A DNA stretch of 64,000 nucleotides from Rhizodiscina lignyota (taxonomy: Eukaryota): the NCBI GenBank assembly GCA_010015805.1, contig ML978121.1, positions 744,001 to 808,000 of the forward strand, in the 5' to 3' direction. Positions 1-64,000 of the stretch are shown here, one piece after another (position 1 is the first letter of the stretch; each line of letters opens with the position of its first letter). A program made the position numbers and the translations under genes. A model generated the notes under the pieces. The model was given only the letters and a program-made list of their open reading frames with translations. It had not been told where the DNA came from and ran no database searches.

Positions 1-1165
1 ATCGACGGGGGGTAGTCGTCGTGGTCGTGGGCCCTCTCGCGCGTCTGCTCAGCGAGCCATATGATGCTGCAGTGGGCGAGTAGCGGAATGCGAGTAACTT
101 GCTGCTCTTCGGGATGGTGTATGGGGGTGTATGAGAGGGAGTCGAGTCGGTTGGGCGTGAGGAGAGTGCAGGAGAGAGTGTCTCAAGGAAGGCCTGCTAA
201 AGCCTGCTAAAGGCGCTGCTTATCCAATCAGGCGTGGCCGACTTTATGCGTCGCACGCCACAGCATTCCTCATTTCAGCTGCAGCGTAGCATCATCTAGA
301 AACGCTACTAACCGGCACGCAAGCAGTTCGCTAATCACGAATTGACGAGAGCAGCTGTGCGGTGCTATCACGCACGGCGAGGTGGGAGTCTGCAGCCTCC
401 AACGCTCCCATATCACGGCCGCTTCAATTGTAACAGGACCCGTTAGCCGCCCATGATCTATTCTGGGCTGCAGGTCACATGTTGGATGGCAAATGGCAAG
501 ACAGGACGCCGTCTACCATGTTGGACAGCGGACTCGATGCTTGATCGCCACGAACACTCTCCTCCTTGTGCGCGCTGTGTCGCTGCATGTCTTGGATTGC
601 ACCCGCTGGGTCCATGTCAGACGTTAGAGGAGCATCCGTGGTTTAAGGTTTGATGGCAGGCCCCGTCCCCGTCAAATAAGCAGCAGCACGTGAAGCGGCG
701 CTCTGGGCTGCTCTGGGTACCCGCGCACCCAAATGCACGGTCGGAGGTACCGCTCGCCAGTAACCGCCAGCCAAGCCAGTCCGGGCTGCCGCTGGCTTTG
801 ACGCTCCTCATCAAACCACAAAGGCGACGCGCAAAAGTAATCATCGACCCTGCGACCCAGCCATAGGAGTGGCCGCGCTTGTTTCCATTATTATGCGCCC
901 TTGCCAGCAACGCGCGCCGTTCCCCTTAATTGTTCGGGTAGGTCCATAATCGTGGCGGCAGGGGATGTGTAGCGCGTGTCGTCACGTACCTCCTTTAACC
1001 CCAGACTTTGTATGACGGGAGCATCCATGACAGAAAATGTCCATCACCATCAACACTTTTCGCTGTATCTCACCACCATTCGCTAATTGGCACGCCCGCT
1101 CGCTTTTCATCTCCGGCATCCGCCATTATCATCCTTCCTTCGCAACCTATCCATGCCGTAACACA

Positions 1166-3222
1166 ATGGCAGAGCCACAAGTTAGAGACTTCCAGACGCG
1201 TGCGAGAGCGGCGACCGAATACATCTCTACTCAAACCTTCGGCGGTGACCTCGAGGCGCAGAGAAGCAGACGGCACAGCTCATCCGTCTCCCCAAATGTT
1301 GCTACTTCAGTTTCCGGTCGAAGCGTCGGGAACGACAACTTACACCCAGACGCTCGCACTTCCGTCGAGAGCCTAAGACGACGACCTACCAGACAAAACA
1401 CCGTTCGGCACTACAGCCAATCTGCTACACATGCGCAGTACGAAGAGCCCGGTGCAGAACCTGGTATAGACACGCAGAAGGAGGATGCGATACTACGATT
1501 CCGGCACTTGCTTGCAGATTGTCAGATTACCGTGGTCGACTTCTCGGAGGATCGCATACAACAGCATGAGCTGGACAATCGCACTCTTGCCGAATTCATC
1601 ATGCAGCCAAAGCCAGATTGGGTGGCCTGCCGTTGGATGAACGTCAATGGCATCAGTTTCGACGTTATACAACTCCTACAGAAGGAGAAGAACCTCCATC
1701 GCCTTGCGGTGGAGGATCTGTTACAGAGCAGAAGTAGGACAAAGGCCGATTGGTACTCTGATCATGCTTTCCGTAAGTGCTCTTCGTTCTTTAGCTGCTT
1801 GCTTAACGAAAGCTGCAATTGTCATACTCTCCCGACAATCTATGCGTGGACGCTCCTATTTCTTGTCAGCTTCCACCTCACTAGAACCAATGTCATGTCA
1901 ATCAATTAGATCTCTTACTATGTGTTCATTGCTTCTTCAGAGAAGCTCTATACCGTGTTATCTAATGTTCTTTCAGTGCTCTTAACCCTCCAAAAGCTGG
2001 TTCGCATCAGTCCTGAAGAGGAACCCGAGGACGACTTTAACGATGCCAAAAAGAATACACTGAAGAAAAAGAAGGGTATTTTTCAACGACTGCAGCGGGC
2101 AGCGACATTTGAGCATGACGCGGATCTCAAGGATGCCCGGATGAACTCCATTGAGAAGCCTCAAGTCGGCGGCTACATGTCAAACCACAACCTTCATGCG
2201 ATTCCTACCCCTGAACATCACTTCAAGACTCTTCAAGAATACCGCGGCGGGCGAAACCTTGAGCGCGTGTTGTATATGGAACGACACTCCGCGCTAACAG
2301 AAAAGGGGCTCGCGGTAAGCGTGGAGCAAGTGTCGATATTCTTGACGAGCGATAACACGGTTATATCATTCTTCGAAGCCTCTGCGGACGACATCGAAGG
2401 GCCTATAATCAAGCGTCTTGAATCTGAAGACACAATTCTCAGGCGGAGCTGCGATGCGAGCATGATGGTTCAAGCAGTCATCGATGCAGTCATTGATCTA
2501 GCCATACCGGTCATCGCGGCTTATGAAGATGTCATCTCAAATCTGGAGCTCGATGTGTTGACTGATCCCGACATTGAACACTCGAAATCCCTCTACATAC
2601 TCTCGTCTGAACTTTCAGCCCTTCGCAACACCATACATCCCATAGGAAGTCTCATTAGTGCACTACGAGACCATCGTTCTGAGCCAGTAGTTGGAAGTGA
2701 GTTTCATCCCTGAGTGGCTCCCATACAAGTACTAATTGGCGCTCTTTAGCTCCTGGAACTCCTGGAACACCAGGTATCCGTCATCGACCCTCCCGCTTCA
2801 TGCCTACTACTGTCAATATCACTCCTCTGGCGCATACCTATCTTGGCGACGTCGAAGATCACTGTGTTATCATCACACAATCCCTGGACCAGATGATACG
2901 TGCCACAAACAGCATGATCGACCTGATCTTTAATATGATGGGCAGTTTCCAAAACGAGTCCATGAAGATCCTCACCGCCGTCACCATTTTCTTCTTACCA
3001 TTGACCTTCCTGACTGGCTATTTCGGCCAGAATTTTAAGCATTTCGAGGGCATTGAGCATAGCGATTTGTACTTTTGGAAAATTGCCGTCCCGGTCATGT
3101 GCGTGACCACGCTGCTGTTGCTGAATGGAATGATTGTCCGGTTCTTTAGAAGGATGCACCAGAAGATTTGGATACGAAGATCCAGGAGGGCGAGATTGAC
3201 GAATCCGTACAGAAGAGGCTGA
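1166..3222 (+). CDS. CorA/ZntB-family divalent metal transporter (3 exons)
   Basis: ORFs 1037-1909, 1922-2713 and 2800-3222 join through introns 1773-1976 (gtaagt..tttcag) and ~2697-2749. Motifs [55 protein letters not shown] and two C-terminal TM helices. Start is ATG 1166, alternatively 1037. Confidence 0.9.
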
Positions 3223-37276: not shown

Positions 37277-40200
37277 ATGGCGCGAGGTTTCGACGAGTTA
37301 ATTGAATTTCTTTTGACGGAGATTGGGCTGTGCGGCCAGAATGGTGAGTCTAACTCTTTGACTACAACTCCGTTTTTCAACACTATCGACTATATATCAT
37401 TTTCCATTTCAGAAATGTGACGAATGAGAGAAACGAGTTGGGTTTCACACACTCTCCGAATTGTGGCACATTTTCTACTTTGAAATACAGTCGAAATAAC
37501 TCTCCATCACAACATTTGGACATTCTGTGGCATTACCCACTAATTAGTCATTACAGGTGCGAGCTTGGATGAATTCAAGTCTTTCGTTTCCAAATTCAAT
37601 GCAAAAATTCATCCAGAGGATGATGATTCCTTGGTGGAGGAGCAAGACAAGTTTGGTCAACGAAAATTGCTCGAGAGGGTCTGGCAGTGGCTTTCATCGC
37701 ACCCAGATATCTGGGTTGGCAAAAATCGTGAAGGCAATTCACTCTCACTCGCGGAAGCTGAAGCTTTTGTTTTGGTATCTGAGGACCTTGCCGACAATAG
37801 AAGCCAACCATCGAAGAACCAGAACCAATCTCAATCTCAACCCCAGGTTACGCAAACCAGGAAAGATGATCCAGCATTTGACGACACTCGTACGGAGGCA
37901 TTCGGCCCTGCTGAAAATGTCGCAGCCGCTGAGAATTTACCTCAGCCACAGGCTCGACTTACACCAATTACGACCGATTCGATAGCGGAAGACTCTCGTG
38001 TGGAGGCGGCCAGTCCTGCTCAAAATGATGCATCCAACGCGGTACCAGATCCTGATCACCGGAGCACAGAGCACAGATCTCAAACTTTTGAGGATGTATT
38101 GCAGCCCCGACCTCATCGGGACAAAGATGCAGAGGTAGAAGCAAACGTTGAAACGGCGGCGACCTGTTGCGGCCTTCGCATTTACACAACCCAGGATCGC
38201 GTCTGGAAGTCAATCGCAGGTCATGGAGTGGACTGGAAGAGACTTGCATTTTTGGAATTTGAGCTATTGAGGATCATTGCAAAACGTGGCACAGCAGGCA
38301 TTGACCAGCCCGATCTCGTTCGCGAGAGCAGGCAAGACAAGAGATCTGTCCCAAAGCGGACAGATGTGCTCCGTGAGAAGGGCTATATTGCAAAATATAG
38401 GGTTATTTTCTCGGGATCCTGGACCAGCCACCTTGTCCTCAACCGCTTTGACACACGCGACGGCAACTCCAACCCAGCAGCCGTGTTCTCCAACCAACGC
38501 ATCAACCTGAACAAATACTTCGATTATATTATAAAGATTTTGAAAGAGCGCCCGGTCATAGCCCTCAAGGACCTTCGAAGGGAACTAGGCATTGAAGGAA
38601 ACAGGCAGCAAAAGAAAGTCCATTGGAGATATCTGAGAAAGTTACGGACCCTGGGCTGCATCAGGTTCTTCAAGGCAAACTCTACCGATAAGGGAATGAC
38701 CATCACACACGTCCCCATAAACTGCGTGGGGTTGCAGCGAGAAGTGACCGAAATGGATCGCAACGATTTCATTGGGTGGCGCACAGAGCTGCCGACGGTT
38801 CTTGATGACTCCAGAAAGGATAATTCGCTCGAGGCAGAAGAGATCGATGAGTTCAAGGATGCTCCCGTCGTTGGGACATATTATCCTTCAAAGGCCGCAG
38901 AAACCGGAGCTTTGGGGGTTGATGCTTCTGTCTCATCGCAAGTTATCCTCGCGGATGCAGTAGAAGAAGTCGTACAGATGCCGCCGCAATGGCTTCCAAT
39001 TGTGCCTCTCTCGAATTTCATATTCAACCTTGTCGACTCGCACGGGAAGGACGGCATCTCTACAATGAAATTAAATCAACTTACGGGCGGACACGCATAT
39101 TTCCGGAGCATAGAAGGGGTTCTTGGGCGTCTCACCGACAGGTGGGAGGAGAGCCAACCTGTGTTCCTTCAACACTTGGCCCTGCTTCGCGACACTGCCG
39201 CGAACGGTTCCTCTCCTCACTTCGTCTTTCGGACCTACCCTCATCATCAAGAGGCCGTGAACGCTGGCATTACAACGTGGCAAAATGTTCCCACAAAGTC
39301 AAACCCCACAAAGACGGTGGCGCCGATCAAGCGATACAAACCAGCGTATGGAGCTGGCGAGAAGACAGTCGATATCGATAGATGGGGCTTTCCAAAGCCA
39401 CGTACGAGCAATTTCGTCGGACAGGACCACACAGCAACATTGAAGGACTGCATCTGGGCTGCCAAGCCTGCAGCAAAGGCGCAGACCTCGAGTGAGCCAG
39501 TGGTTGTAACACACGACGACGGGTCGGAAAGGGTGCTCTGGCTGAGAAAGGGCCGGTCTGAAGAGGCCACCACATATCTTGATCCACAGGATCAACCAAG
39601 AAAGCCGCTTCGGAACATGTTCCAGACTGCGGATCCTTCCGAGTATGGGAGGTTGTACAGAGCAGCTCAGAGGAAGGCTGAGCTGGATGCGGCCTGGGAC
39701 GCCAGAGTTCGTCGATTGGCGGAATGGAAGGCAATGCAGGAGGGATATCAAGATCCACTGACTTCTACAACCATACCATCGAATGCTGCTGCAAAGCGAA
39801 CTGCAGAGATGGCACAGCTAGACTCCCCGCCACTGGTTGCTGTCCCAGTGCAACAAGTGGCCACGCCCAAGAAACGAGGACGGCCGCCCAAAAAACCAAA
39901 GATAAACCAAAGCACAGAGGCACCTCCAACCGCAAGTAGCAATCTGCAGACCCAACCAGAGAGCGGAGAATCCTCATCAGCTACGGCATTACCAGTACAG
40001 AGTCCTTCTACAGTGCAGTGCCCGCCGGCCGCTCTTCCCCTTCCTGTTAATGAGTCCCTGACCGTTGGAGGCACGAATGGGGAGGCCAGAACATCCGCAG
40101 GCAGAGCCTTTGAGCATCGTGTTGACGAATTGGTCAAAGAGATACAGGCGTGTGACAAACCTGGCGCGTACTATGACGCCCCGAAGCACAGACGAATTTT

Positions 40201-43200
40201 TGAAAAACGGTACAAAAAATCTGCCATTCTTGCTATCAAATCTGAAAAGCTTCTTGAGCTGCCATGGTTTCTAGTGGAAGTGACGAGCAATGAAGAAGTG
40301 GCTAATGAGGAGATGGCCAATGAGGAGGTGGAGGAGGTGGCCAATGAGGAGGTGGCCAATGAAGAGGTGGAGAAGGCCGGTGAAGAGGTGGCCGATGAGG
40401 ACACGGAGATGCCTGATGCAAGCGACGTTCCCTTGGAGCACCGCCAAATTCAGAGTGTTGCACCTCGCAAGCCTATTTGGGGTGTCAGGCGCGTAAAGAA
40501 AAGAGGCCGACCTCGTGTTGGGGCTGGAGGACATCTTGTTATTGCGATTTGGTCAAATCGACTGCATGAACTTGATGGCTTCCAATATCCTCGAAATTCA
40601 TTTAATACCGGCATTGACTACACCGTAAGGACATCCGCTTCCACTGGTCAGGTAGACGAAACCGGAGAGAGAGTACAGTCCGATATTCTCGGCGAGATGG
40701 ACGAATCGTCAGGCGCAGCAGAGGCAACACAACAAGCTGTGGCCAAGTCGACACCGACACCGACACAAGAGCTCCTGCCAACATCAACAGTCCAAGCTCC
40801 AGCCTCATCGGAGCAAGAACCAACAATACTACCAACGCCAGAAACACTCTCAACTCCCGCCACAACCACCAAGCGAAAGCGAGGTCGTCCTAGAAAAGTG
40901 CGCCCTGTAGAGAATATGCCAGCCGATGAGACAAATCAAATGGAGACAATCGCCCCAACTCCAGAGTCTCTTTCAACCTCTGGCGCTGCGGCTAAGCGAA
41001 AGCGTCCACCCCCTAAAGCGATGTCTTCCCCGGAAGACGTAGCGGACAACTATGCAAATTCAAAGAGCTCACCCTCATCAATGCCAGGATCTGTCTCAAC
41101 ACCTGCCACTGGGACTCAGCAAAAGCAAAACCGCAAAAGAGTTTCTTTCGTTGATGAAGCAGCCCTGGATTATGCTGACGAGTCAGTTTTCGCTCCGCCC
41201 CGTCAACAAGAACATATGGTAGAGACAACTTCTTTCACCGAAATGACGATATCGAACCCACCCTCGCATGCTATGCCATCACAGGAACATGTTTCATCGA
41301 CCTCTAAAAGCTTAGATACCCCAGAGACAGAACCACCTCCGAAACGCAGGCGTGGTCGCCCGCCCAAGAAGCGAGCTGTTTCATCAAGCGCAAACACTGC
41401 AAGCTTTGACACTGCATCGAGTGGAATATTGCAAGTCAACCTGGAAGAAAGCGTCTCTGCAACAGCGCCTGTTATTCCACCTCAATCGAGAGACGAGCTA
41501 GTGCCCCCTAGCGAAAAGGTCACTGTAGATGGTGGTCTCGGAGAAGTTGCGCCCAAGACTCCGGGTACTACAATCACCCCAGTGAGCTTACAAGCCTCAA
41601 TGATACAGACGCCTCTAGCCAGCCCAACTCTATCCACCCCACAAACGTATGATTCGAGTCGAGTTAGCCCTCTCAAGAAGGCGCGTTTCGATGCGTCACC
41701 CCTCCAAACTCGTTCACCATTACGCATGGGAACGACGATGATCGGGCCCACGACAGCAGATCAACGATCGAGCCCCCTTCGGAGAGCAGCTGGAGTCAAA
41801 GTCAGCGGAGGTGCTACGTTGATGGATGTTGACATTCAAATGCCTGACGCAGAGAGTGCTCCGAAAATACCTGAGACGGCCGCAACAGAGAAACAGGTCA
41901 ATGGTGCGGAAGAGGCCACCACAGGTGCAGAACGCGGGACATCTGTACCCGCAAATCAATCACCAAATGGGATAACGACGCAAACCGTGGCGAATAATGC
42001 AACTTCAGTCGAACCAGCCGTCGAAAATCCAGTCGATCCGTCCGCTTCCACTCCTGCTCCATCCCAACTACGTTCTAACGACGGCCTCGAGATAGGTCTA
42101 GCACGTCGTGGTGGCTCTGTTAACAGACTCGGAGGCAAACTAATATTTGATATTCTGCAGCGATGCGGCGGCGTTTTTCCAGCAAACGACGAGATGGCCA
42201 GACCTTTTGGCGCAGCATGGCAACAGCAGTTTAAACGACAAGCGACTCCCGAGCTCCGTACTGTGAACGGCATTGTCAAATCACTCATTGACAAGGCAGA
42301 GCTGAAGAGATTCAAATTCTCATTCAAGGATAGTAGAGGCGTCGTACACCCTCGAAAGATCATAGCGTTGCCGCGCATTGTCCCCGGATCTCCAGAACTC
42401 AAAGTGCTTCAAGAGAAGATCAGTCGTGCTCACCCCAACAAATACATTCCGCCCGAAGCATGGGGACCGGGGATGAAACATGACTTCCAAAGCGAACAGA
42501 ACGATATCAAACCTTCTGGAAGGGTCCACTTTGCGCAGCAAGCAAACACCTGGGTCGAGATAAAACACCCGAGTAAAACCCTCCTGAAAGCTGTGCAGCG
42601 GAAAGAGGAAGCGAAACAGAGAAGGCTTCGGAAGATTCAAGAAATTGATGCTGCAATGGCGGCCCGCAGGGCTGCTTATGTAACTCCTATGACAAGCAGG
42701 GGCAAATCCAGGCTTGCTCGGTTCCATAAGTGGAAAAAAAGTATTGAGAGTCCTTCGGAGGATGAGACCGATGATGAAGTTGCTCAGTACAACTTGGGTC
42801 AGTCTGGCTATCGAATCATACATTCGAAGCCCCCCGCGGACGGGATTGGGCCCCAGCCTGGCCATCCACCGAACCAAGATGCACACGGAGCAAAAGACCC
42901 GCTTGTTGGTGGAGTTCAAGCTGTCCCGACACTCGGTCAATATGCATTCGTACCCAAAAGCTCCCTTGTTGGTGAAGATCAAGCTTTCGGGATACTCAGG
43001 CCACCTCCGGGCCAGCGTCTACACAAAATTCCTCCGTCGATTTATCCTCTGGAAGCCTGGAAGCCCTTTGGGATGCTAGGGCCTGAGGTGCTCGGGCCTG
43101 AGGTGTTCGGGCCCAGGCCGCGAGCAAAGTCGACTCGCTTTAGCTCAATCTTTTTCAGACCCACGCAGCGATTTTATCCGAATACGGGTACATTTTCTAC

Positions 43201-45169
43201 AGAGTTTGGTCGACTACGTGGGCGACCCTTCGAAACCTTTCCATCTCCACTAGAGCTGCTCGGAACACGATCTCGCGAATATGTAGAGCCTGTACTTTTC
43301 CAGCCACGATCAGAGCCTGCCAAAAAGAAAGTCATCCGAAACAATCCCAAAAGAAAATACAAACCGATGAAGAGCTCTGATATCCCACTGGACAGGGTGC
43401 AGAAGATGGTCTTTGCTCTCATTGCCATCCGGGCCCTCACCGGCGGCATCGGTGGAGGCCTAAACTTTTATATTCTAAACCACATCTTCAGAAATGACGA
43501 AATGTACGATAGAGCCTCTTACAGACAGAGATGGCTCACATTCGAGAGGAATAACCGGGTTTGGATTGATAAGATGACCGCAGACTTTCAGAGCCGCTTC
43601 CTGCAGGCATATGCTGTGGGCGATGTCCCGCCGCTGAACTACGAGAAACTGGAGACGTACGACTGGGATAAACTCATGGACTGGGCCGTCCCTACTCTTG
43701 CAGAGACTGCCGGCCAGACCCCTAAACTTCCGGCCTCGAGGGTTCTATTTGACGAGGACTATCGCATCGACCAGCAAAACAACTCCACATACGGGACTTT
43801 TCGAGACAAGATCTACTATGAGACTGCTAACTCTCTAATGCGCGTCAATTTATGGCACCGTCAGCCGTTTTCCATTGTCTCTGTTTCATCTTCAGATGCG
43901 TACATGGAGCTGAGGCAGCGAGACGCTGAGCTTATTCCGTCGATTGCGGATTTTGATGCCCAGTTTGGGGACGACATTTCGCTTTCAATGGAAGAGTATA
44001 GTGCTCTGAAACCAGACGCTTCTTTCGCACTGGCAATGTCGGTCGTTCGCGCAAACGTCTTCACGCCATCCGACAGGTACAGCAGGGAGGCCGCATATCA
44101 TCGCCTCTCTGCATTTCCAAACGACCAGCTCTTCTCGGCCATTACCGCCATGGAAAAGGGGAAGGTGATTCAAAGGAACAAGGAGTTCTCTTCTGATCGT
44201 GAATACGTCATCCCCCACGATTTCTGGGACAAGCTGCACTATCATATGAAACTTCGTGAGCGTCCATTCTTAGAGGCGGTGAAGTTCAAGAAGGATCTCG
44301 ACGAAGCCTTCAGTAAGGGCAAGGGGCCCTATACCTTTCCTCAAGACGCCAGCAATGGGATGACCATGGCTGTGGACAATCTGCTAGCGAATGGGAGGAT
44401 CAAGCTTGCGCCAATTTTGCCGAAGATCGACTCGAGGTTCGGTGAGCCTGGGAAACGACTGACGAAATGGGGATGGTTGGAGGGCTCCTACCAGACACGA
44501 AAGGTCAACGTGGACCATTTCTTCTATCCATTGGAGGTCACGCCAACTGAGAAGTACGAGTTTGGCATCCCGCTGCGGAACTCCAACCATCCACAACTGC
44601 CTTACCCAGCTCTGCCGCCCCGAGTAGATCCTAACGACCATTTCTTGCCTGTCCCGATTTGGATGGACATCAACGGTGAAATCAACATAACCATGTGGCA
44701 AAAGATTCTCTGCCTTATCCTGAATTGGCTGATCATGCGGCCGTTTATGGGAGCGGAGGAGTTGGCCTTGGTGAACATGAGCAAGGGCTTGTTCTGGGAG
44801 TGGGAGTTGCGCTTGGCATTGGAGTGGATGGAGGATGCTGGGCTTGTTGTTGGCAAAGATACGGTTGGGATGGATGGGAAGGTCATTGGAAAGAGATGGA
44901 CTACCGGAGAGTGGTGGTGGCTGTGTTTTGCTGGTGGAGATGATGGGGCGCGCGAGGACGGCGAAGGAGAAGACATAAACGGGGGAGAGAAAGGTGAAAA
45001 CGATGAAGAGGGAGGAGAAGATGGTGCTCTAGAAGACCAGGATGGTGTTGTGCAAATTGAAGATGGTGCTGTGGAAGTCGACCAAGACGAAGACTGGGAG
45101 ATGCAAGAAGTCGATGACGATGGGACGTACGTGGACGGAGATGATGATGTCGCTATGGATGATGAGTGA
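37277..45169 (+). CDS. TFC3: RNA Pol III transcription factor TFIIIC large B-block-binding subunit (Tfc3/Sfc3)
   Basis: Exon 1 MARGFDELIEFLLTEIGLCG, intron 37344-37556, then a >2500 aa exon. Motifs GI.QPDLV..S.QDKRSVPKRTD.L.EKGYI.K (B-block domain), GTFST, PIWMDING and W.TGEWWW, with an acidic tail. Confidence 0.88.
40290..40400 (+). repeat. Coding imperfect tandem repeat (EEVAN-like units) within TFC3
   Basis: gaggaggtggccaat-like 15-nt units encoding NEEVANEEMANEEVEEVANEEVANEEVEKAGEEVADE. Confidence 0.85.
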
Positions 45170-53131: not shown

Positions 53132-54943
53132 ATGGGATCTGAATGGTTCGCGGACAATCTCTGCCGTTCTTGCAGACAGGACATCCTTCACCTGCTCAAA
53201 GCTGCTGAATCGGGCCATCTCGACGTAATACAGGATTGTATCGATCGAGGCGTGGACCTTGACTGGAAGGTTGAAGACGATGACTATCTTATCGCGCCTC
53301 AATTGGACGGAACGCCAGCTATTGTCCTAGCCGCAAGCAGAGGACACACCGCCGCTGTGCGACTTCTTCTTGACAACGGTGCCGATGTCAACAACCAAGC
53401 CGATATCGTTGACACTATTGGGACAGCGCTGATGTGCGCCTGCGAGCAGGCTAGGGTCGAGCTTGTTCGGTTGCTCGTGGCACATGGCGCGAAGCCAGAA
53501 TCCTTAGGAGGCTTTGCAGGCAGGACTACGAACGTGTTGCCTGTCTGTGCTTCGCATCGTTATGTCAGGCCGGAAGGGGATCGATACCGATCTGAATGTG
53601 TTAGAATCCTCCTGGAGGCTGGCCACGATCCAAATGTGAAGGACGAGGTGGGCTTGACTGTTTTCGACTATGCCCTGGGGTTCGGAGACATGGAGTTATT
53701 CAACTTACTGACTACCCATGGATCTGGTCGTCAGGAATACATCCAGTGTTCACGTCTAAGTGGCTCAACAGAAGATGAAGCTAGGCGGATGCGCATGATC
53801 GAAGACCTCTGCAAACCACAAGAAGGATACCGAGATGGCTTTGTTTATTTTGAGAAAATATTCGCGGCTGTCGAAGACGGCGATGAGGTTATGCAAGAGG
53901 TCTTGGTGAGGGCGTACGATGCATACTTCCATTATGGCCAGCGTACCAGGAGAACCTGGTCGAATAGGCCTTTCCAGGTAGCCAGTTTCCTTGTTCGACA
54001 TGAGGATTATGTTTCACCGAAGACACTGGAGCTTGTTCTGCTGGCTGGCGCCGTTGTCGACGGTCAAGATGATAATGGCTGGACTGCTTTACACTTTGCG
54101 TTGAGCGACATCGACCGCGAGTTACCTCCAAATATGAATGTGCGGCACTGGCCAAAGAGGGTAGAAAGCGAGGTTTATCCCCGCTTGGACATGCTCAGAC
54201 TTCTTCTCGACCACGGCGCAAGTACCGATATACGTACGAACAAGGAAGGAGACACACCCTTGCACCACGCTGTAATGATCCATCCATCAGGTCCACAAGG
54301 AAGCCCATCTAGGTGGCTGCGGCGCGATATTGAAACCAACGAGACTGCAAAATTCTGTAGCCCTGCAACACTCCCGGCTCTCAAGATGCTTCTCGCGCAT
54401 GGAGCGGATGTGCGGTCTGAGAATGATCTGGGCTACACTCCACTTCACCTTGCAGCAAACCATGAGACAGTACCACTCATAATGCCGCTGCTCGAGGCGG
54501 GCGCAGATATCGAAGCCAGAGCTGCTGATGGCAGCACGCCGTTGCACTGCGCGATGACGATGTTCTGGATTAATATGGAGCATCGACAACTCTCTCATCA
54601 TCCAGCCAGTCTCTTCCCCGGGTGGAACTGGAGGACTCCTGTCGTCGTCAAGACACTCATTGATGCTGGAGCAAATGTGAATGCACGACTGGACGACGGC
54701 AAGACGGTCCTGCACGTCCTCGCGGAGGAGGGTTCCGATCATATGCTGGTATCTGATGTGGAGATGTGTGAGAGTGACGGCCATTGGCTGGGGACCAAGG
54801 ACTTCATCAAGTGGTTTCTACAGCAAGGTGCCGATGTGAACATTCTCGACGATAACGACGAGACCGCAGCGCAGGTCGCCCACAGGCTTGGTAAGCCCAA
54901 TTTAGCAGCGATTCTTGAGGGTAAACTCGGCTGGGCTCATTGA
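53132..54943 (+). CDS. Ankyrin-repeat protein
   Basis: Repeated G.TPLH.A / LL..GADVN motifs (GTPAIVLAASRGH, GWTALHFA, GDTPLHHA, GYTPLHLAA, GSTPLHCA, GKTVLHVLA) across a 603 aa ORF. Confidence 0.92.
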   Translation: MGSEWFADNLCRSCRQDILHLLKAAESGHLDVIQDCIDRGVDLDWKVEDDDYLIAPQLDGTPAIVLAASRGHTAAVRLLLDNGADVNNQADIVDTIGTALMCACEQARVELVRLLVAHGAKPESLGGFAGRTTNVLPVCASHRYVRPEGDRYRSECVRILLEAGHDPNVKDEVGLTVFDYALGFGDMELFNLLTTHGSGRQEYIQCSRLSGSTEDEARRMRMIEDLCKPQEGYRDGFVYFEKIFAAVEDGDEVMQEVLVRAYDAYFHYGQRTRRTWSNRPFQVASFLVRHEDYVSPKTLELVLLAGAVVDGQDDNGWTALHFALSDIDRELPPNMNVRHWPKRVESEVYPRLDMLRLLLDHGASTDIRTNKEGDTPLHHAVMIHPSGPQGSPSRWLRRDIETNETAKFCSPATLPALKMLLAHGADVRSENDLGYTPLHLAANHETVPLIMPLLEAGADIEARAADGSTPLHCAMTMFWINMEHRQLSHHPASLFPGWNWRTPVVVKTLIDAGANVNARLDDGKTVLHVLAEEGSDHMLVSDVEMCESDGHWLGTKDFIKWFLQQGADVNILDDNDETAAQVAHRLGKPNLAAILEGKLGWAH

Positions 54944-57688: not shown

Positions 57689-59149
57689 ATGTCCAACACT
57701 CAGGCTTACGATGCACAAGGCAAGGGCCGGTCGACATTCACGGTGCACAAAGAGCGAGTTTTCTACGATGTAATGGATCTGCATCGAGCAACGCTGATTC
57801 AACTTGTCAAGGTCGGGACTGTCGATGCGGAAGCTGGAAAAAGGATCGCAAATGGCATGGCTCAGGCTATTGCGTCTTACGATGATCCTACTGATCCAGC
57901 ATGCCTGGACTACCTTCTGCTAGAGGGTAAATTGCTGGAGCTAGTCGGTCCAACAGCGTCCTTTCTGCATACTGGACGTAGTCGCCAGGACATCACGTCA
58001 ACGCTGTGCCAGATGGAGGCTCGCCATGGTGCTCGAGTATCGGCAAATGCAATCCTAAAGGTCCGCGAGAGTTTGCTGCAAGTAGCGGAGAAGCATATCA
58101 TGACGGTCATTCCAGCATACACGCACGGTGTACCAGCTCAGCCGGAAACATTTGCTCACTACTTGCTATCTTTCCATGACAGTATGGAACGACATTACCA
58201 CCGAATGGAGGAAGCGTACAGCCGCGCTAACCAAGCCGCGCTGGGTTCAGACGTGATGTGCACCTCGCGCTTCCGTCACGACCGACATCTCGCAGCCGCA
58301 TTACTTGGTTTTGACGGGCCGGTTGAGAACTCCCTCGACGCTGTTCACGGCCATGCGGCTGATGCCTTGTGCGAAGTCTCGCAGAATATGAGCCTGGTTT
58401 CGGTTTTGCTGTCGAGGTACATGATGGACATGAACGTTTGGCAAATGACGGCCCATCCCTGGATCTACATGTCACCATCGAAGCTCATGTCTGTGAGCAG
58501 TTCAATGCCCCAGAAACGTAATCCACGGGCCATGGAGTGGGTCCGTAGTATGGGTGCCATCATCAGTGGACAGAGCGAGGCATTTTTGATGGCTGCTCGC
58601 AACCAGCCAACTGGAATGTCTGATATTCGCGATAACATGGCTCGAATTCCCGACGAAATCATGGTGAAGATGCTCGATTTTGTGTCCAACATTGTGCTGT
58701 CTTTGGCTATTAACGTCGAGCGGGCACGCGAGGAGACGGCAAAAGACTACTCGACCATGATCGATGTTGCCGAGTCACTTTACGTTAAAGGCAAAGTGCC
58801 CTTCCGCATTGGCCACCATCTGGCGTCCCTGATGACTGACTACGGCCGCGAGAATGGCCTATACCCTTACCAAATCCCTTATGGTGAGGCTCAGCGGATG
58901 TACAGGTCTATCAGTGACGGACAAGAGTTGCCCATAAGCGAGGCCGAATACAAGGATACGTTAGATCCCGTAGAGTATATCAAGAGCCGACGCGGCATTG
59001 GCGGTCCGCAGGAAGACGAGGTGAAGACCATGATTGCGGAGCGGAAGTCGCGCCTTGAGGCCGACCAGAAGAAGGCTAATATCCGAAGCCAGCAGTTAAC
59101 AGATGCCAAAGCGCGATGCCACCAGGAATTTGAAGACCTTCGAAAATAG
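57689..59149 (+). CDS. Argininosuccinate-lyase-like C-N lyase (fumarase/aspartase superfamily), atypical
   Basis: LHTGRSRQD, PAYTHGVPAQP, SSSMPQKRNP signature loop and VPFR.GHH. Intron-less 486 aa ORF. Confidence 0.85.
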   Translation: MSNTQAYDAQGKGRSTFTVHKERVFYDVMDLHRATLIQLVKVGTVDAEAGKRIANGMAQAIASYDDPTDPACLDYLLLEGKLLELVGPTASFLHTGRSRQDITSTLCQMEARHGARVSANAILKVRESLLQVAEKHIMTVIPAYTHGVPAQPETFAHYLLSFHDSMERHYHRMEEAYSRANQAALGSDVMCTSRFRHDRHLAAALLGFDGPVENSLDAVHGHAADALCEVSQNMSLVSVLLSRYMMDMNVWQMTAHPWIYMSPSKLMSVSSSMPQKRNPRAMEWVRSMGAIISGQSEAFLMAARNQPTGMSDIRDNMARIPDEIMVKMLDFVSNIVLSLAINVERAREETAKDYSTMIDVAESLYVKGKVPFRIGHHLASLMTDYGRENGLYPYQIPYGEAQRMYRSISDGQELPISEAEYKDTLDPVEYIKSRRGIGGPQEDEVKTMIAERKSRLEADQKKANIRSQQLTDAKARCHQEFEDLRK

Positions 59150-60902: not shown

Positions 60903-62663
60903 ATGACGTTTGACCAGTTGAAAATGCCTGGGCTCCATCTCTCTTCAACTATTCCCCCGAAGATCCGGAAAGGAAAACGCAGGAATACCGATCCACGCAC
61001 CAACACGACGATTGTCGGATTCATGGAAACGTATGCAGACGAATGGCGATCCTTTGCGGAACTGGCCGAGAAACTGGAAGAACACTGTAGAGAACTGCTG
61101 AAAGAGCGCGGGATACTCTGCATCGTCACATCCCGTGCCAAAAAGGCAAAATCGCTGCAGAAAAAGCTGGATGACCGAGCCTCGGAGTCGAATAAGGTCT
61201 ACCATAACCCTCAAGCGATATACGATGACATTGTGGACATAGCGGGAGTTCGCATCGCCTTGTACTATCCAAACGACGGGGAGACCGTGGAAGAGCTCTT
61301 GGTCGAAGAGTTCAAAGCAGTGGAAGTGAAAGTGAAGGTCATAGACTCGCCTCCCACAATGAAACTGGATGCTTCAACAACCGACTACCGAGCGCACCAT
61401 TATCGACTACGCTCTCAAAATTGGCCTATGCTTGGCGACAACTACAAGTCTTCATTTTCAATCAAAGTGCGTGCTGAGATTCAAGTTGCATCAGTGGTGC
61501 ACCATGTATGGCAAGAAGTGGCCCACGATCTGCTGTACAAAAAGATGGAAGGAGACCCTACTCCACAGGAAAAAAACCTCCTCAAAATCATCCATGGAAA
61601 CATCACCCAGGTTGAGTTTCAATTGAACTCTCTTAAAGGGGAATTGAAACAGAGGCTAAGCCGAGAAGAGACGCCCTTCGATAATGAGCACCAGCTTCCG
61701 GTCTTTCTTGGCGAATTAGTTGGCCAGCGCACCGACTGGACTAAAGCGAAAATCAAAGTCAGCAATCCAGACTTTCTCCTGACTGCCCTGCAAAGTCTCG
61801 AATCTGACACTCGGAAACAACTCAAAGACGTATTGCATGGCGTCTTCGACAATGCTACGGAGATGCCCAAAGCGATGTTCGAGCCCGGCTCGGCATCAAC
61901 AGTGAACCTTAGCCAGCGAAATTCATCCGAGAAGTCGAAGAACGATCATCAAATCTGGGTCTCACCTGAAGGGAAGCTTGACCTCACTATCGCTATACTC
62001 GACCTTTTGGTGGACGCACGAAGTGGTCGTCAGCTCTCTGAAATAGACCGAACAGTCGCCGGGGAAGAGAGTCTGTATAGAAGCCTCTCGCTACCCAAAA
62101 AGCTCGATCGCTCGTTCTCCCCATCAAACGCCCGCTCCATCTGGAATGGACTCAAGGTAACTACCTATCGAGTAAAGCATGGCTGGCGCAAGAATTCTAT
62201 CTCAGATTCTAAACTTGGCAACAACCTTTCCGAATGTCATCGTGTCGCGCACGCACTCTGCCTACTGCAGCTGTTATTTTCCTTCACCGGTAACGCTTTC
62301 CTTCGCGATATCCCGGAGGCTAAACACTTCGAGCACGCCCAGAGATTGCGCTACCTTGGGCATGCTCTGAAAGCTTTTAAGCCTGGTCACAGCACACAAA
62401 ATGATGTCAGCACGGATGAAGAGAAGGAAAAGATACGTCATTTACTAGATTGGCTAGAAATGATGGGGAAGAATTATGCGGATTTTAATCTTGTCTTGCG
62501 TCTGGTAGAGCGCGGTGTCAAGAGCAACGTTCCTGATGTGGGCGATTCAATCAACAAAATCACGAAAGACGTCGACGGTTTAATATCAAGGGAAAGCATA
62601 TCTAATGAAGTACATCGGAAAGCCAAGCCATCGGGGCGGTGGACTGCCATTGCAAAGCATTAA
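60903..62663 (+). CDS. RelA/SpoT synthetase-domain protein (small alarmone synthetase-like) with uncharacterised C-terminal extension
   Basis: SRAKKAKSLQKK (RxKxxxSxxxK), DIVDIAGVRI, DYRAHHY, AEIQVAS and W.EVAHDLLYK appear in the expected order within about aa 75-215. Intron-less 586 aa ORF. Confidence 0.88.
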   Translation: MTFDQLKMPGLHLSSTIPPKIRKGKRRNTDPRTNTTIVGFMETYADEWRSFAELAEKLEEHCRELLKERGILCIVTSRAKKAKSLQKKLDDRASESNKVYHNPQAIYDDIVDIAGVRIALYYPNDGETVEELLVEEFKAVEVKVKVIDSPPTMKLDASTTDYRAHHYRLRSQNWPMLGDNYKSSFSIKVRAEIQVASVVHHVWQEVAHDLLYKKMEGDPTPQEKNLLKIIHGNITQVEFQLNSLKGELKQRLSREETPFDNEHQLPVFLGELVGQRTDWTKAKIKVSNPDFLLTALQSLESDTRKQLKDVLHGVFDNATEMPKAMFEPGSASTVNLSQRNSSEKSKNDHQIWVSPEGKLDLTIAILDLLVDARSGRQLSEIDRTVAGEESLYRSLSLPKKLDRSFSPSNARSIWNGLKVTTYRVKHGWRKNSISDSKLGNNLSECHRVAHALCLLQLLFSFTGNAFLRDIPEAKHFEHAQRLRYLGHALKAFKPGHSTQNDVSTDEEKEKIRHLLDWLEMMGKNYADFNLVLRLVERGVKSNVPDVGDSINKITKDVDGLISRESISNEVHRKAKPSGRWTAIAKH

Positions 62664-63036: not shown

Positions 63037-64000
63037 TTGAGATTGTCCAAGCCGTCGAGAGCCCTCAACCTGTCCATCAAGATGAACGAATCGTACAGGC
63101 ATTTTGCCGAGAGACAGCAAAAACGTAATCCGAGTCTTGAAACCCTACTACAATTTCTTGCAACTGCGAGTTCAAGAACCAGCACATGCCGCATCATCAG
63201 CCTAGACTTCTACAACGATACTTTGAGTCCTCGACAGCGAGAGATTCAGGTCGAAAGACTTGCTCATCTACTGGGTGATCAGGGAGATGGATTCGTTGGA
63301 CGGTTCGTAATCTGCGAGGATTTGGACCCTTTGATCATTGAATGGTTAGGAACGGCACTGCAAATTGACCCAATGTTCTTCGCGGCCCACATACACCACA
63401 CTTCTGTTGGTCCAGGCTCCGATCCGCCTTCTTTGGTCACACTGTCTTCAATCTTGCATGCCAAAGAGTTTGTAAACTTACACTTCCATCGTGTCATCGA
63501 GTTCCAAGACGCACCGCCCAATCGACGAATGTTCCAGACATCCATTGTGCCACGGAAGATAATGGCAGTGCGAGTTACTGGAAACAAATGGCTGGGCCTT
63601 GAGCAACACTGCTGTTCAATATTGAGAGTCTCGTCGCAGAGCATCCCATGGCTATGTATGCAAGATATTTTTTAGGTTCAGCGTCAGTCATAGACTAATA
63701 ACTCCTAGACTTGATTCTTGTTGATCCTCCTTCCACTAACGCTATTGCTAAGGGCCACAGGGACAAGAGTTGTTCATCACCGACGAGTGTTCGCATACGT
63801 CCATTCCAAGGCGGATACGAGGATTTCCTCCCAGCTCAGCTACCCGACCAGCGAGACAGTGATATTGGGCCAGGGCGTCACTCAATGCTTGATGACATTG
63901 CCTATTACTGGACCAGGGCGCCTCAGTTGCACTTCAGGCGCGACTCTCCTACTCTTCTTTCCGCGTGCTATATACCGCTGCATCTTGTAGCCTCGGAATG
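63037..64000 (+). CDS. Fungal CorA-like protein, N-terminal part (runs off the window, start uncertain)
   Basis: ICEDL....IE.LG..L.IDP.FFA.HI. Intron 63656-63708 continues into YLILVDPP, PFQGGYEDF, SMLDDIAYYW and PLHLVASEW, with the frame open to the window end. These motifs are recalled from divergent fungal CorA-like proteins. The diagnostic TM/GMN region lies outside the window. Confidence 0.65.

Follow-up and report, generated by a model that had tools for sequence, protein, structure and literature searches.

We examined a 64,000-nucleotide stretch of the Rhizodiscina lignyota genome (contig ML978121.1, positions 744,001 to 808,000; "the window") that carries, near its end, a gene for a small alarmone synthetase (SAS), P0001. 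An earlier reading of the sequence alone (the sequence-only reading) had described this gene as a stand-alone fungal SAS with intact catalytic motifs, no introns, and no HD hydrolase, NACHT, or repeat domain. It would have been contradicted by a profile match to another nucleotidyltransferase class. A profile search returned RelA_SpoT at amino acids 77-215 (E = 4.6e-11; 43.4 bits, cut-off 27) and no other Pfam family at E ≤ 0.01. "Stand-alone" fits the polypeptide; it does not fit the locus, where a gene for a CorA-like membrane protein, which the sequence-only reading missed, begins on the same strand 418 bp downstream of the SAS stop codon.

The synthetase gene and its CorA-like neighbor

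60903..62663, + strand: SAS gene, a single uninterrupted open reading frame (ORF) of 586 amino acids (ORF list and Pfam search)
60903..60992, + strand: amino acids 1-30, basic disordered extension (RKGKRR), missing in most relatives (alignment; predicted-structure confidence, pLDDT, below 50 for amino acids 1-25)
60993..61670, + strand: amino acids 31-256, RelA/SpoT synthetase domain, including long helices
61665..62027, + strand: amino acids 255-375, small helical linker domain common to fungal and bacterial relatives
62028..62210, + strand: amino acids 376-436, disordered insert in this copy only (pLDDT below 50; relatives gapped)
62211..62621, + strand: amino acids 437-573, helical tail, with a bundle (amino acids 437-540) and then a final helix; candidate degenerate HEPN domain
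63082..63655, + strand: exon 1 of the CorA-like gene, soluble N-terminal part
63656..63708, + strand: its GT-AG intron of 53 nt; the spliced product is the database protein P0183 (513 amino acids)
63709..64000, + strand, and on past the window to G000:C1:808676: exon 2 of the CorA-like gene (PF01544)

A scan of the SAS gene for donor, branch, and acceptor sites gave zero intron candidates, and no repeat-induced-mutation signature was present. Pfam searches found no HD, NACHT, or repeat domain, and family profile searches found no HD hydrolase, TGS, or ACT domain, in agreement with the sequence-only reading. NB-ARC was absent from the Pfam results too, and the C-terminal region is modeled as all-helical, so the layout of the fungal NLRs was not found. 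The protein has no hydrophobic signal or membrane segment. P0001 is the sole match to PF04607 in the 33.4 Mb genome, and searches with two fungal relatives likewise matched P0001 alone. The context is fungal (the neighboring gene has an intron), and the entire 7.5 kb lies within one contig at even depth; the contig probably corresponds to the source data.

The sequence-only reading had left about 350 C-terminal amino acids as an unknown region, which structure prediction replaces with a different picture. The synthetase reaches to about amino acid 256, and the other 330 amino acids form two helical domains, both with homologs and confident models, plus a disordered insert of 60 amino acids. 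Within the linker domain there is a low-confidence insert near amino acids 331-347.

P0183 matches PF01544 above the cut-off (E = 4e-8) and has weak matches in PDB to ZntB/CorA. After its soluble domain it has two terminal hydrophobic segments (near amino acids 414 and 443), taken to be C-terminal membrane helices. GMN is the selectivity signature of the CorA family. P0183 lacks it and has FSME in its place; among the homologs, 30 of 39 have FSMN and 1 of 39 has FGMN. The family thus lacks the Mg-selective GMN. There are 24 CorA-like loci in the genome. Another of these lies within the window (1037-3222, + strand; PF01544 at E = 6.9e-18, last exon), but it has no match to the SAS neighbor and is not close kin. 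Directly after the CorA-like gene is a 395-amino-acid ORF (L006 5948-7135, + strand, which is G000:C1:809448-810635); it is helical, with no Pfam match above noise, and its N-terminus may resemble the N-terminal helical domains of fungal STAND proteins.

Relatives, catalytic residues, and tail of the synthetase

A phmmer search against 50% representatives gave 2,881 matches at E ≤ 0.001. The best 150 of these were 28-40% identical, mostly 400-460 amino acids long, and aligned over amino acids 35-320. The top-ranked ones were bacterial-type proteins, and these matches support the bacterial origin that the sequence-only reading had suggested for the family. Matches that carry an LWxWF tail make up a fungal subset, with named members from Xylaria, Fusarium, Lasiodiplodia, Monilinia, Talaromyces, Beauveria, Halenospora, Neofusicoccum, and Neonectria. 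P0001 has the C-terminal region of these other fungal SASs, including the fungal motif L[W/L]xW[F/L] at amino acids 514-518. The phylogeny that had been suggested as a check gave a divided answer: in mixture-model trees, a poorly supported branch separates the fungal rows from the others (support 44, 19 versus 26 rows; support 49, 25 versus 16 rows), but the LG+G4 tree placed P0001 among bacteria, with a long-branch warning. The SAS is an old fungal family rather than a recent transfer into this genome, and P0001 is a new, divergent member of the catalogued family. One fungal relative (P0083) is fused to a C-terminal EH domain, which suggests a membrane-trafficking localization in some members.

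Fungal SASs as such are nothing new: they are already in print (PMC3153485, bioRxiv 10.1101/575399, PMC4986451), a point that the sequence-only reading missed. Fungal RelA/SpoT synthetases have been catalogued since 2011 without a product, partner, or role, and the available literature reports no biochemical test of any of them. Like P0001, divRel (PMC3153485) and FunRel (bioRxiv 10.1101/575399) are synthetase-only RelA/SpoT homologs (RSHs) of filamentous ascomycetes with no RSH hydrolase and an inferred bacterial origin, and we tentatively place P0001 in this stand-alone family. Unlike what we describe for P0001, the available descriptions mention no C-terminal domains, HEPN-bearing bacterial relatives, or gene partner.

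The synthetase domain has the RelA/SpoT fold and contains R78, K80, S84, K88, R92, D112 (of DIAG), Y162, H166, E192 and Q194 (of EIQ), H208, and K213. The residues of RelP that contact ATP, Mg, or the acceptor (K80, S84, K88, R91, D107, Y151, and E174) are matched by K80, S84, K88, R92, D112, Y162, and E192; the one-residue offset at R92 is family-wide. The acceptor-stacking Tyr162 and a RelQ-like fold are retained. These residues suggest that the synthetase probably is catalytically active. "Intact" is right for the catalytic residues, but P0001 is atypical at T159 (F in the family), D161 (G in the family, and in 131 of 131 non-fungal homologs), Q204 (A/S), and A207 (E/N/D).

The sequence-only reading had also singled out EIQVAS, in place of the bacterial EIQIRT, as a peculiarity. 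This did not hold up. Of the 131 homologs that are not labeled fungal (those with names are bacterial), 115 have A at position 196 and 15 have G; of the 26 labeled fungal, 16 have A there. The closest relatives all carry EIQVASVLMHAW, so EIQVAS is the norm in the family, which lacks the Arg of EIQIRT. Compared with bacterial RelQ (SAS1) and RelP (SAS2), to which it is about 22% identical, P0001 has Ala for this Arg and 330 extra C-terminal residues. The product is not readable from the sequence: several toxSAS subfamilies modify tRNA without a clear sequence signature (bioRxiv 2021.04.30.441581).

In the nearest bacterial relatives, the C-terminal domain appears to be of the HEPN type, with an RNxxxH motif (52 of 83 bacterial loci). 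A set of 64 motif-selected bacterial proteins had sub-threshold matches to five named HEPN families of Pfam and to DUF4145 (best E = 1.8e-4), and these tails are likely to be HEPN even though they score below the curated cut-offs. In HEPN domains, the conserved RNase motif (Rx4-6H) stands where helix 3 ends. None of 18 fungal tails has its canonical form (R[NDHS]xxxH). A looser and unconserved Rx4-6H occurs in six of the 18, including R481-H487 of P0001. We slightly favor HEPN ancestry for the fungal tail.

A regulatory role for the C-terminus is plausible, as the sequence-only reading had proposed by analogy to fused toxSAS proteins, but a fusion of the CapRel type is probably not the model for it. 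CapRel (a fused toxSAS) and FhepTA (a fused MNT-HEPN protein; PMC13000451) do resemble P0001 in joining a nucleotidyltransferase-fold enzyme to a C-terminal module in one gene. However, CapRel matches only amino acids 34-240 and no small conserved partner gene was seen, while FhepTA combines MNT with an active HEPN, unlike the fungal tail, from which the canonical motif is missing.

Single-gene fusions of SAS, helical linker, and HEPN-type (RNxxxH) domain are widespread in bacteria and phages (about 410-460 amino acids; e.g., P0003, P0012, and P0036; loci L002-L005, L035-L114, and L115-L147). They have no recurring partner gene, and some members lack the His or have a swapped tail (TPR or ankyrin-like). 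Of the 79 viral loci, 24 have the subfamily motif, and seven of those have RNxxxH. Large viral contigs (about 67-460 kb; L124, L126-L128, L130, L133, and L135-L139) encode SAS domains of the subfamily in proteins of 450-690 amino acids with unrelated tails and no RNxxxH. The bacterial sister proteins have the appearance of defence systems made up of a single gene, and viral contigs carry some of them.

Pairing of the two genes in other fungi

Given 24 CorA-like loci in the genome, the chance of finding one within 3-5 kb of a given gene is 0.4-0.7%. Among 84 loci that we fetched from prokaryote genomes and metagenomes, 83 were bacterial and exactly one (L111) was fungal, as judged by its tail profile and by an intron in its SAS. 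L111 is also the only one of the 84 with a CorA-like gene, so the two genes are adjacent here and in the one independent fungal locus (1/1). In L111 they are head-to-head and 454 bp apart. Exon 1 of the L111 CorA-like gene has one match in the R. lignyota genome, which is the SAS neighbor (E = 2.8e-37, 38.5% identity), and its intron follows the same 574 coding bases as the intron of the SAS neighbor. Because the orientation differs between the two loci, the pair has outlived a rearrangement.

There is likely a third pair: the ENA records of P0170 (a fungal-type SAS) and of P0242 (CorA-like) each give a contig of 26,188 bases, which was the only coinciding size when the two lists were compared by eye, and we infer that they are adjacent. 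In both the SAS tree and the CorA tree (the latter built from 45 of 120 listed homologs, L111, and two outgroups), the three pairs are spread over different branches and so are not near-copies. These scattered positions fit an old linkage with many losses. Overall, functional coupling of the SAS to the CorA-like gene seems somewhat better than an even bet. Neither the SAS-CorA pairing nor SAS-HEPN fusions or ancestry were described in the literature searched (subscription papers and preprint supplements lay outside it).

Possible function of the pair, and other genes in the window

The best explanation overall, to which we give a probability of roughly 40%, is that the two genes form a signal-plus-pore module, and a signal generator with a pore is the most economical reading of the pair. 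The ancestor would have been a bacterial three-part protein (synthetase, helical linker, and HEPN RNase). In the fungal lineage the RNase motif would have been lost, leaving a tail that is probably non-catalytic, regulatory or oligomerizing, and holds the enzyme off. On a trigger, the synthetase would use ATP to pyrophosphorylate a nucleotide, making (p)ppGpp, (pp)pApp, or a similar compound. This nucleotide would gate the adjoining CorA-like protein and so set off stress or cell death, locally, as a defence against non-self or pathogens. We hold the ligand gating and the defence role tentatively, at somewhat less than even odds. The fully specified version, a two-gene immune module of filamentous fungi with an RSH synthetase and a ligand-gated CorA-like pore, built within fungi from a bacterial SAS-HEPN defence protein with a dead RNase and with its output rewired to the membrane, is doubtful.

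There are precedents for the parts. In some type III CRISPR systems, the effector is a divergent CorA that binds SAM-AMP (PMC10600005), and there, as proposed here, the gene for a nucleotide-signal synthase adjoins one for a divergent CorA-family membrane protein whose soluble domain is large. The fungal pair differs in being eukaryotic and in having no CRISPR machinery, another synthase fold, and no recognized signal-degrading enzyme. A candidate incompatibility gene of Morchella encodes a CorA-like protein (PMC8940278). RelA_SpoT also serves as an effector domain of fungal NLRs (PMC4986451), and the occurrence of bacterial relatives on viral contigs fits a role in defence as well.

Several observations weigh against a signal-plus-pore module. 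A search of the genome for HD_4 found no hydrolase that could reset the signal. Just one independent fungal locus was read directly, and about 40 other fungal SAS records come without DNA context; the third pair rests on equal contig size. The CorA-like homologs (141 matches) far exceed the fungal SASs found, so many of them probably have no SAS partner. With a profile of the fungal subfamily, no CorA-like gene turned up in any of the 83 bacterial or 79 viral loci, which leaves the pairing without a bacterial precedent in this set. Linkage of fungal genes can stem from shared mobile or accessory regions. The likeness of the tail (amino acids 437-540) to the four-helix HEPN fold is within the noise for helical bundles. 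Finally, by alignment, the four atypical positions are conserved acceptor-side positions, and P0001 is the longest branch in every tree (end branch 2.4-4.4 versus medians of 0.65-1.06).

These last two points, along with three insertions that its relatives lack, would also suit a decaying or activity-changed copy of a formerly functional member under relaxed selection (with the substitutions F159T, G161D, A/S204Q, and E/N/D207A). But the ORF of 1,761 bases is free of stops and frameshifts, every family-invariant catalytic residue is retained, both C-terminal domains give confident models, repeat-induced mutation left no signature, and the CorA-like neighbor is likewise intact, which makes decay quite unlikely. 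Less improbable, if still unlikely, is a self-contained, autoinhibited toxic SAS. The synthetase would be the effector (by pyrophosphorylation of tRNA CCA or by making ATP-depleting (pp)pApp), the linker and tail a built-in antitoxin or sensor, and the CorA-like gene a hitchhiker or an independent defence gene on the same island. The tRNA-modifying toxSAS subfamilies with no clear signature (bioRxiv 2021.04.30.441581) and the missing EIQIRT Arg are consistent with this, as are the bacterial relatives, which are single genes with no recurring partner except for the chromosomal neighbors of one clade. Also, the same Pfam domain is the N-terminal, presumed direct effector of fungal RelA_SpoT-NACHT NLRs in a presumed immune context (Dyrka et al. 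2014, PMC4986451), although P0001 has an all-helical linker and tail instead of NACHT/NB-ARC and repeats.

Two other explanations appear very unlikely. P0001 might make (p)ppGpp that either acts on bacteria, as a signal or to manipulate them, or serves as an internal starvation signal, with the neighbor serving metal homeostasis; such roles have been put forward for divRel of fungi and for the domains fused to NLRs (PMC3153485, PMC4986451). Tyr162 and the RelQ-like fold would suit this, but the SAS has no hydrophobic signal or membrane segment, HD_4 is missing from the genome, the family is patchy and fast-evolving, and the neighbor lacks GMN. Or the synthetase might modify proteins, as MNT acts on HEPN: the bacterial form would silence its own HEPN RNase, and the fungal form would bind or modify the CorA-like protein as an antidote or gatekeeper. 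Fused MNT-HEPN proteins are controlled by self-oligoAMPylation (PMC13000451), and the CRISPR CorA is toxic alone and requires its partner enzyme (PMC10600005). The bacterial relatives share the layout of nucleotidyltransferase plus HEPN, but the acceptor-site Tyr and His are retained. It also counts against this explanation that no RSH synthetase is known to modify proteins.

With a conserved membrane-protein neighbor and a bacterial sister family (SAS-HEPN, in phages too), the signal-plus-pore reading becomes testable: which nucleotide is made, and does the channel open? If correct, this would give fungi a first pathway with an alarmone-type second messenger and add them to the bacteria and animals that defend themselves with nucleotide signals of this sort. 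The many divergent ascomycete CorA-like genes (24 loci here) would then acquire a function. Otherwise, P0001 is an unremarkable, somewhat divergent representative of a known but uncharacterized family.

Directly upstream of the SAS is an intronless argininosuccinate-lyase-like gene (57689-59149, + strand; 486 amino acids), possibly a second, bacterial-type paralog; it scores below all NCBIfam cut-offs (argH, 236.7 versus 279.5 bits). Six kb upstream of the SAS, a 603-amino-acid protein (53132-54943, + strand) has ankyrin repeats near both ends and a middle with no assigned family. A 2,157-amino-acid ORF (38696-45169, + strand) has DUF6581 at amino acids 1561-2024, plus a long A-rich-coded region with no assigned family.
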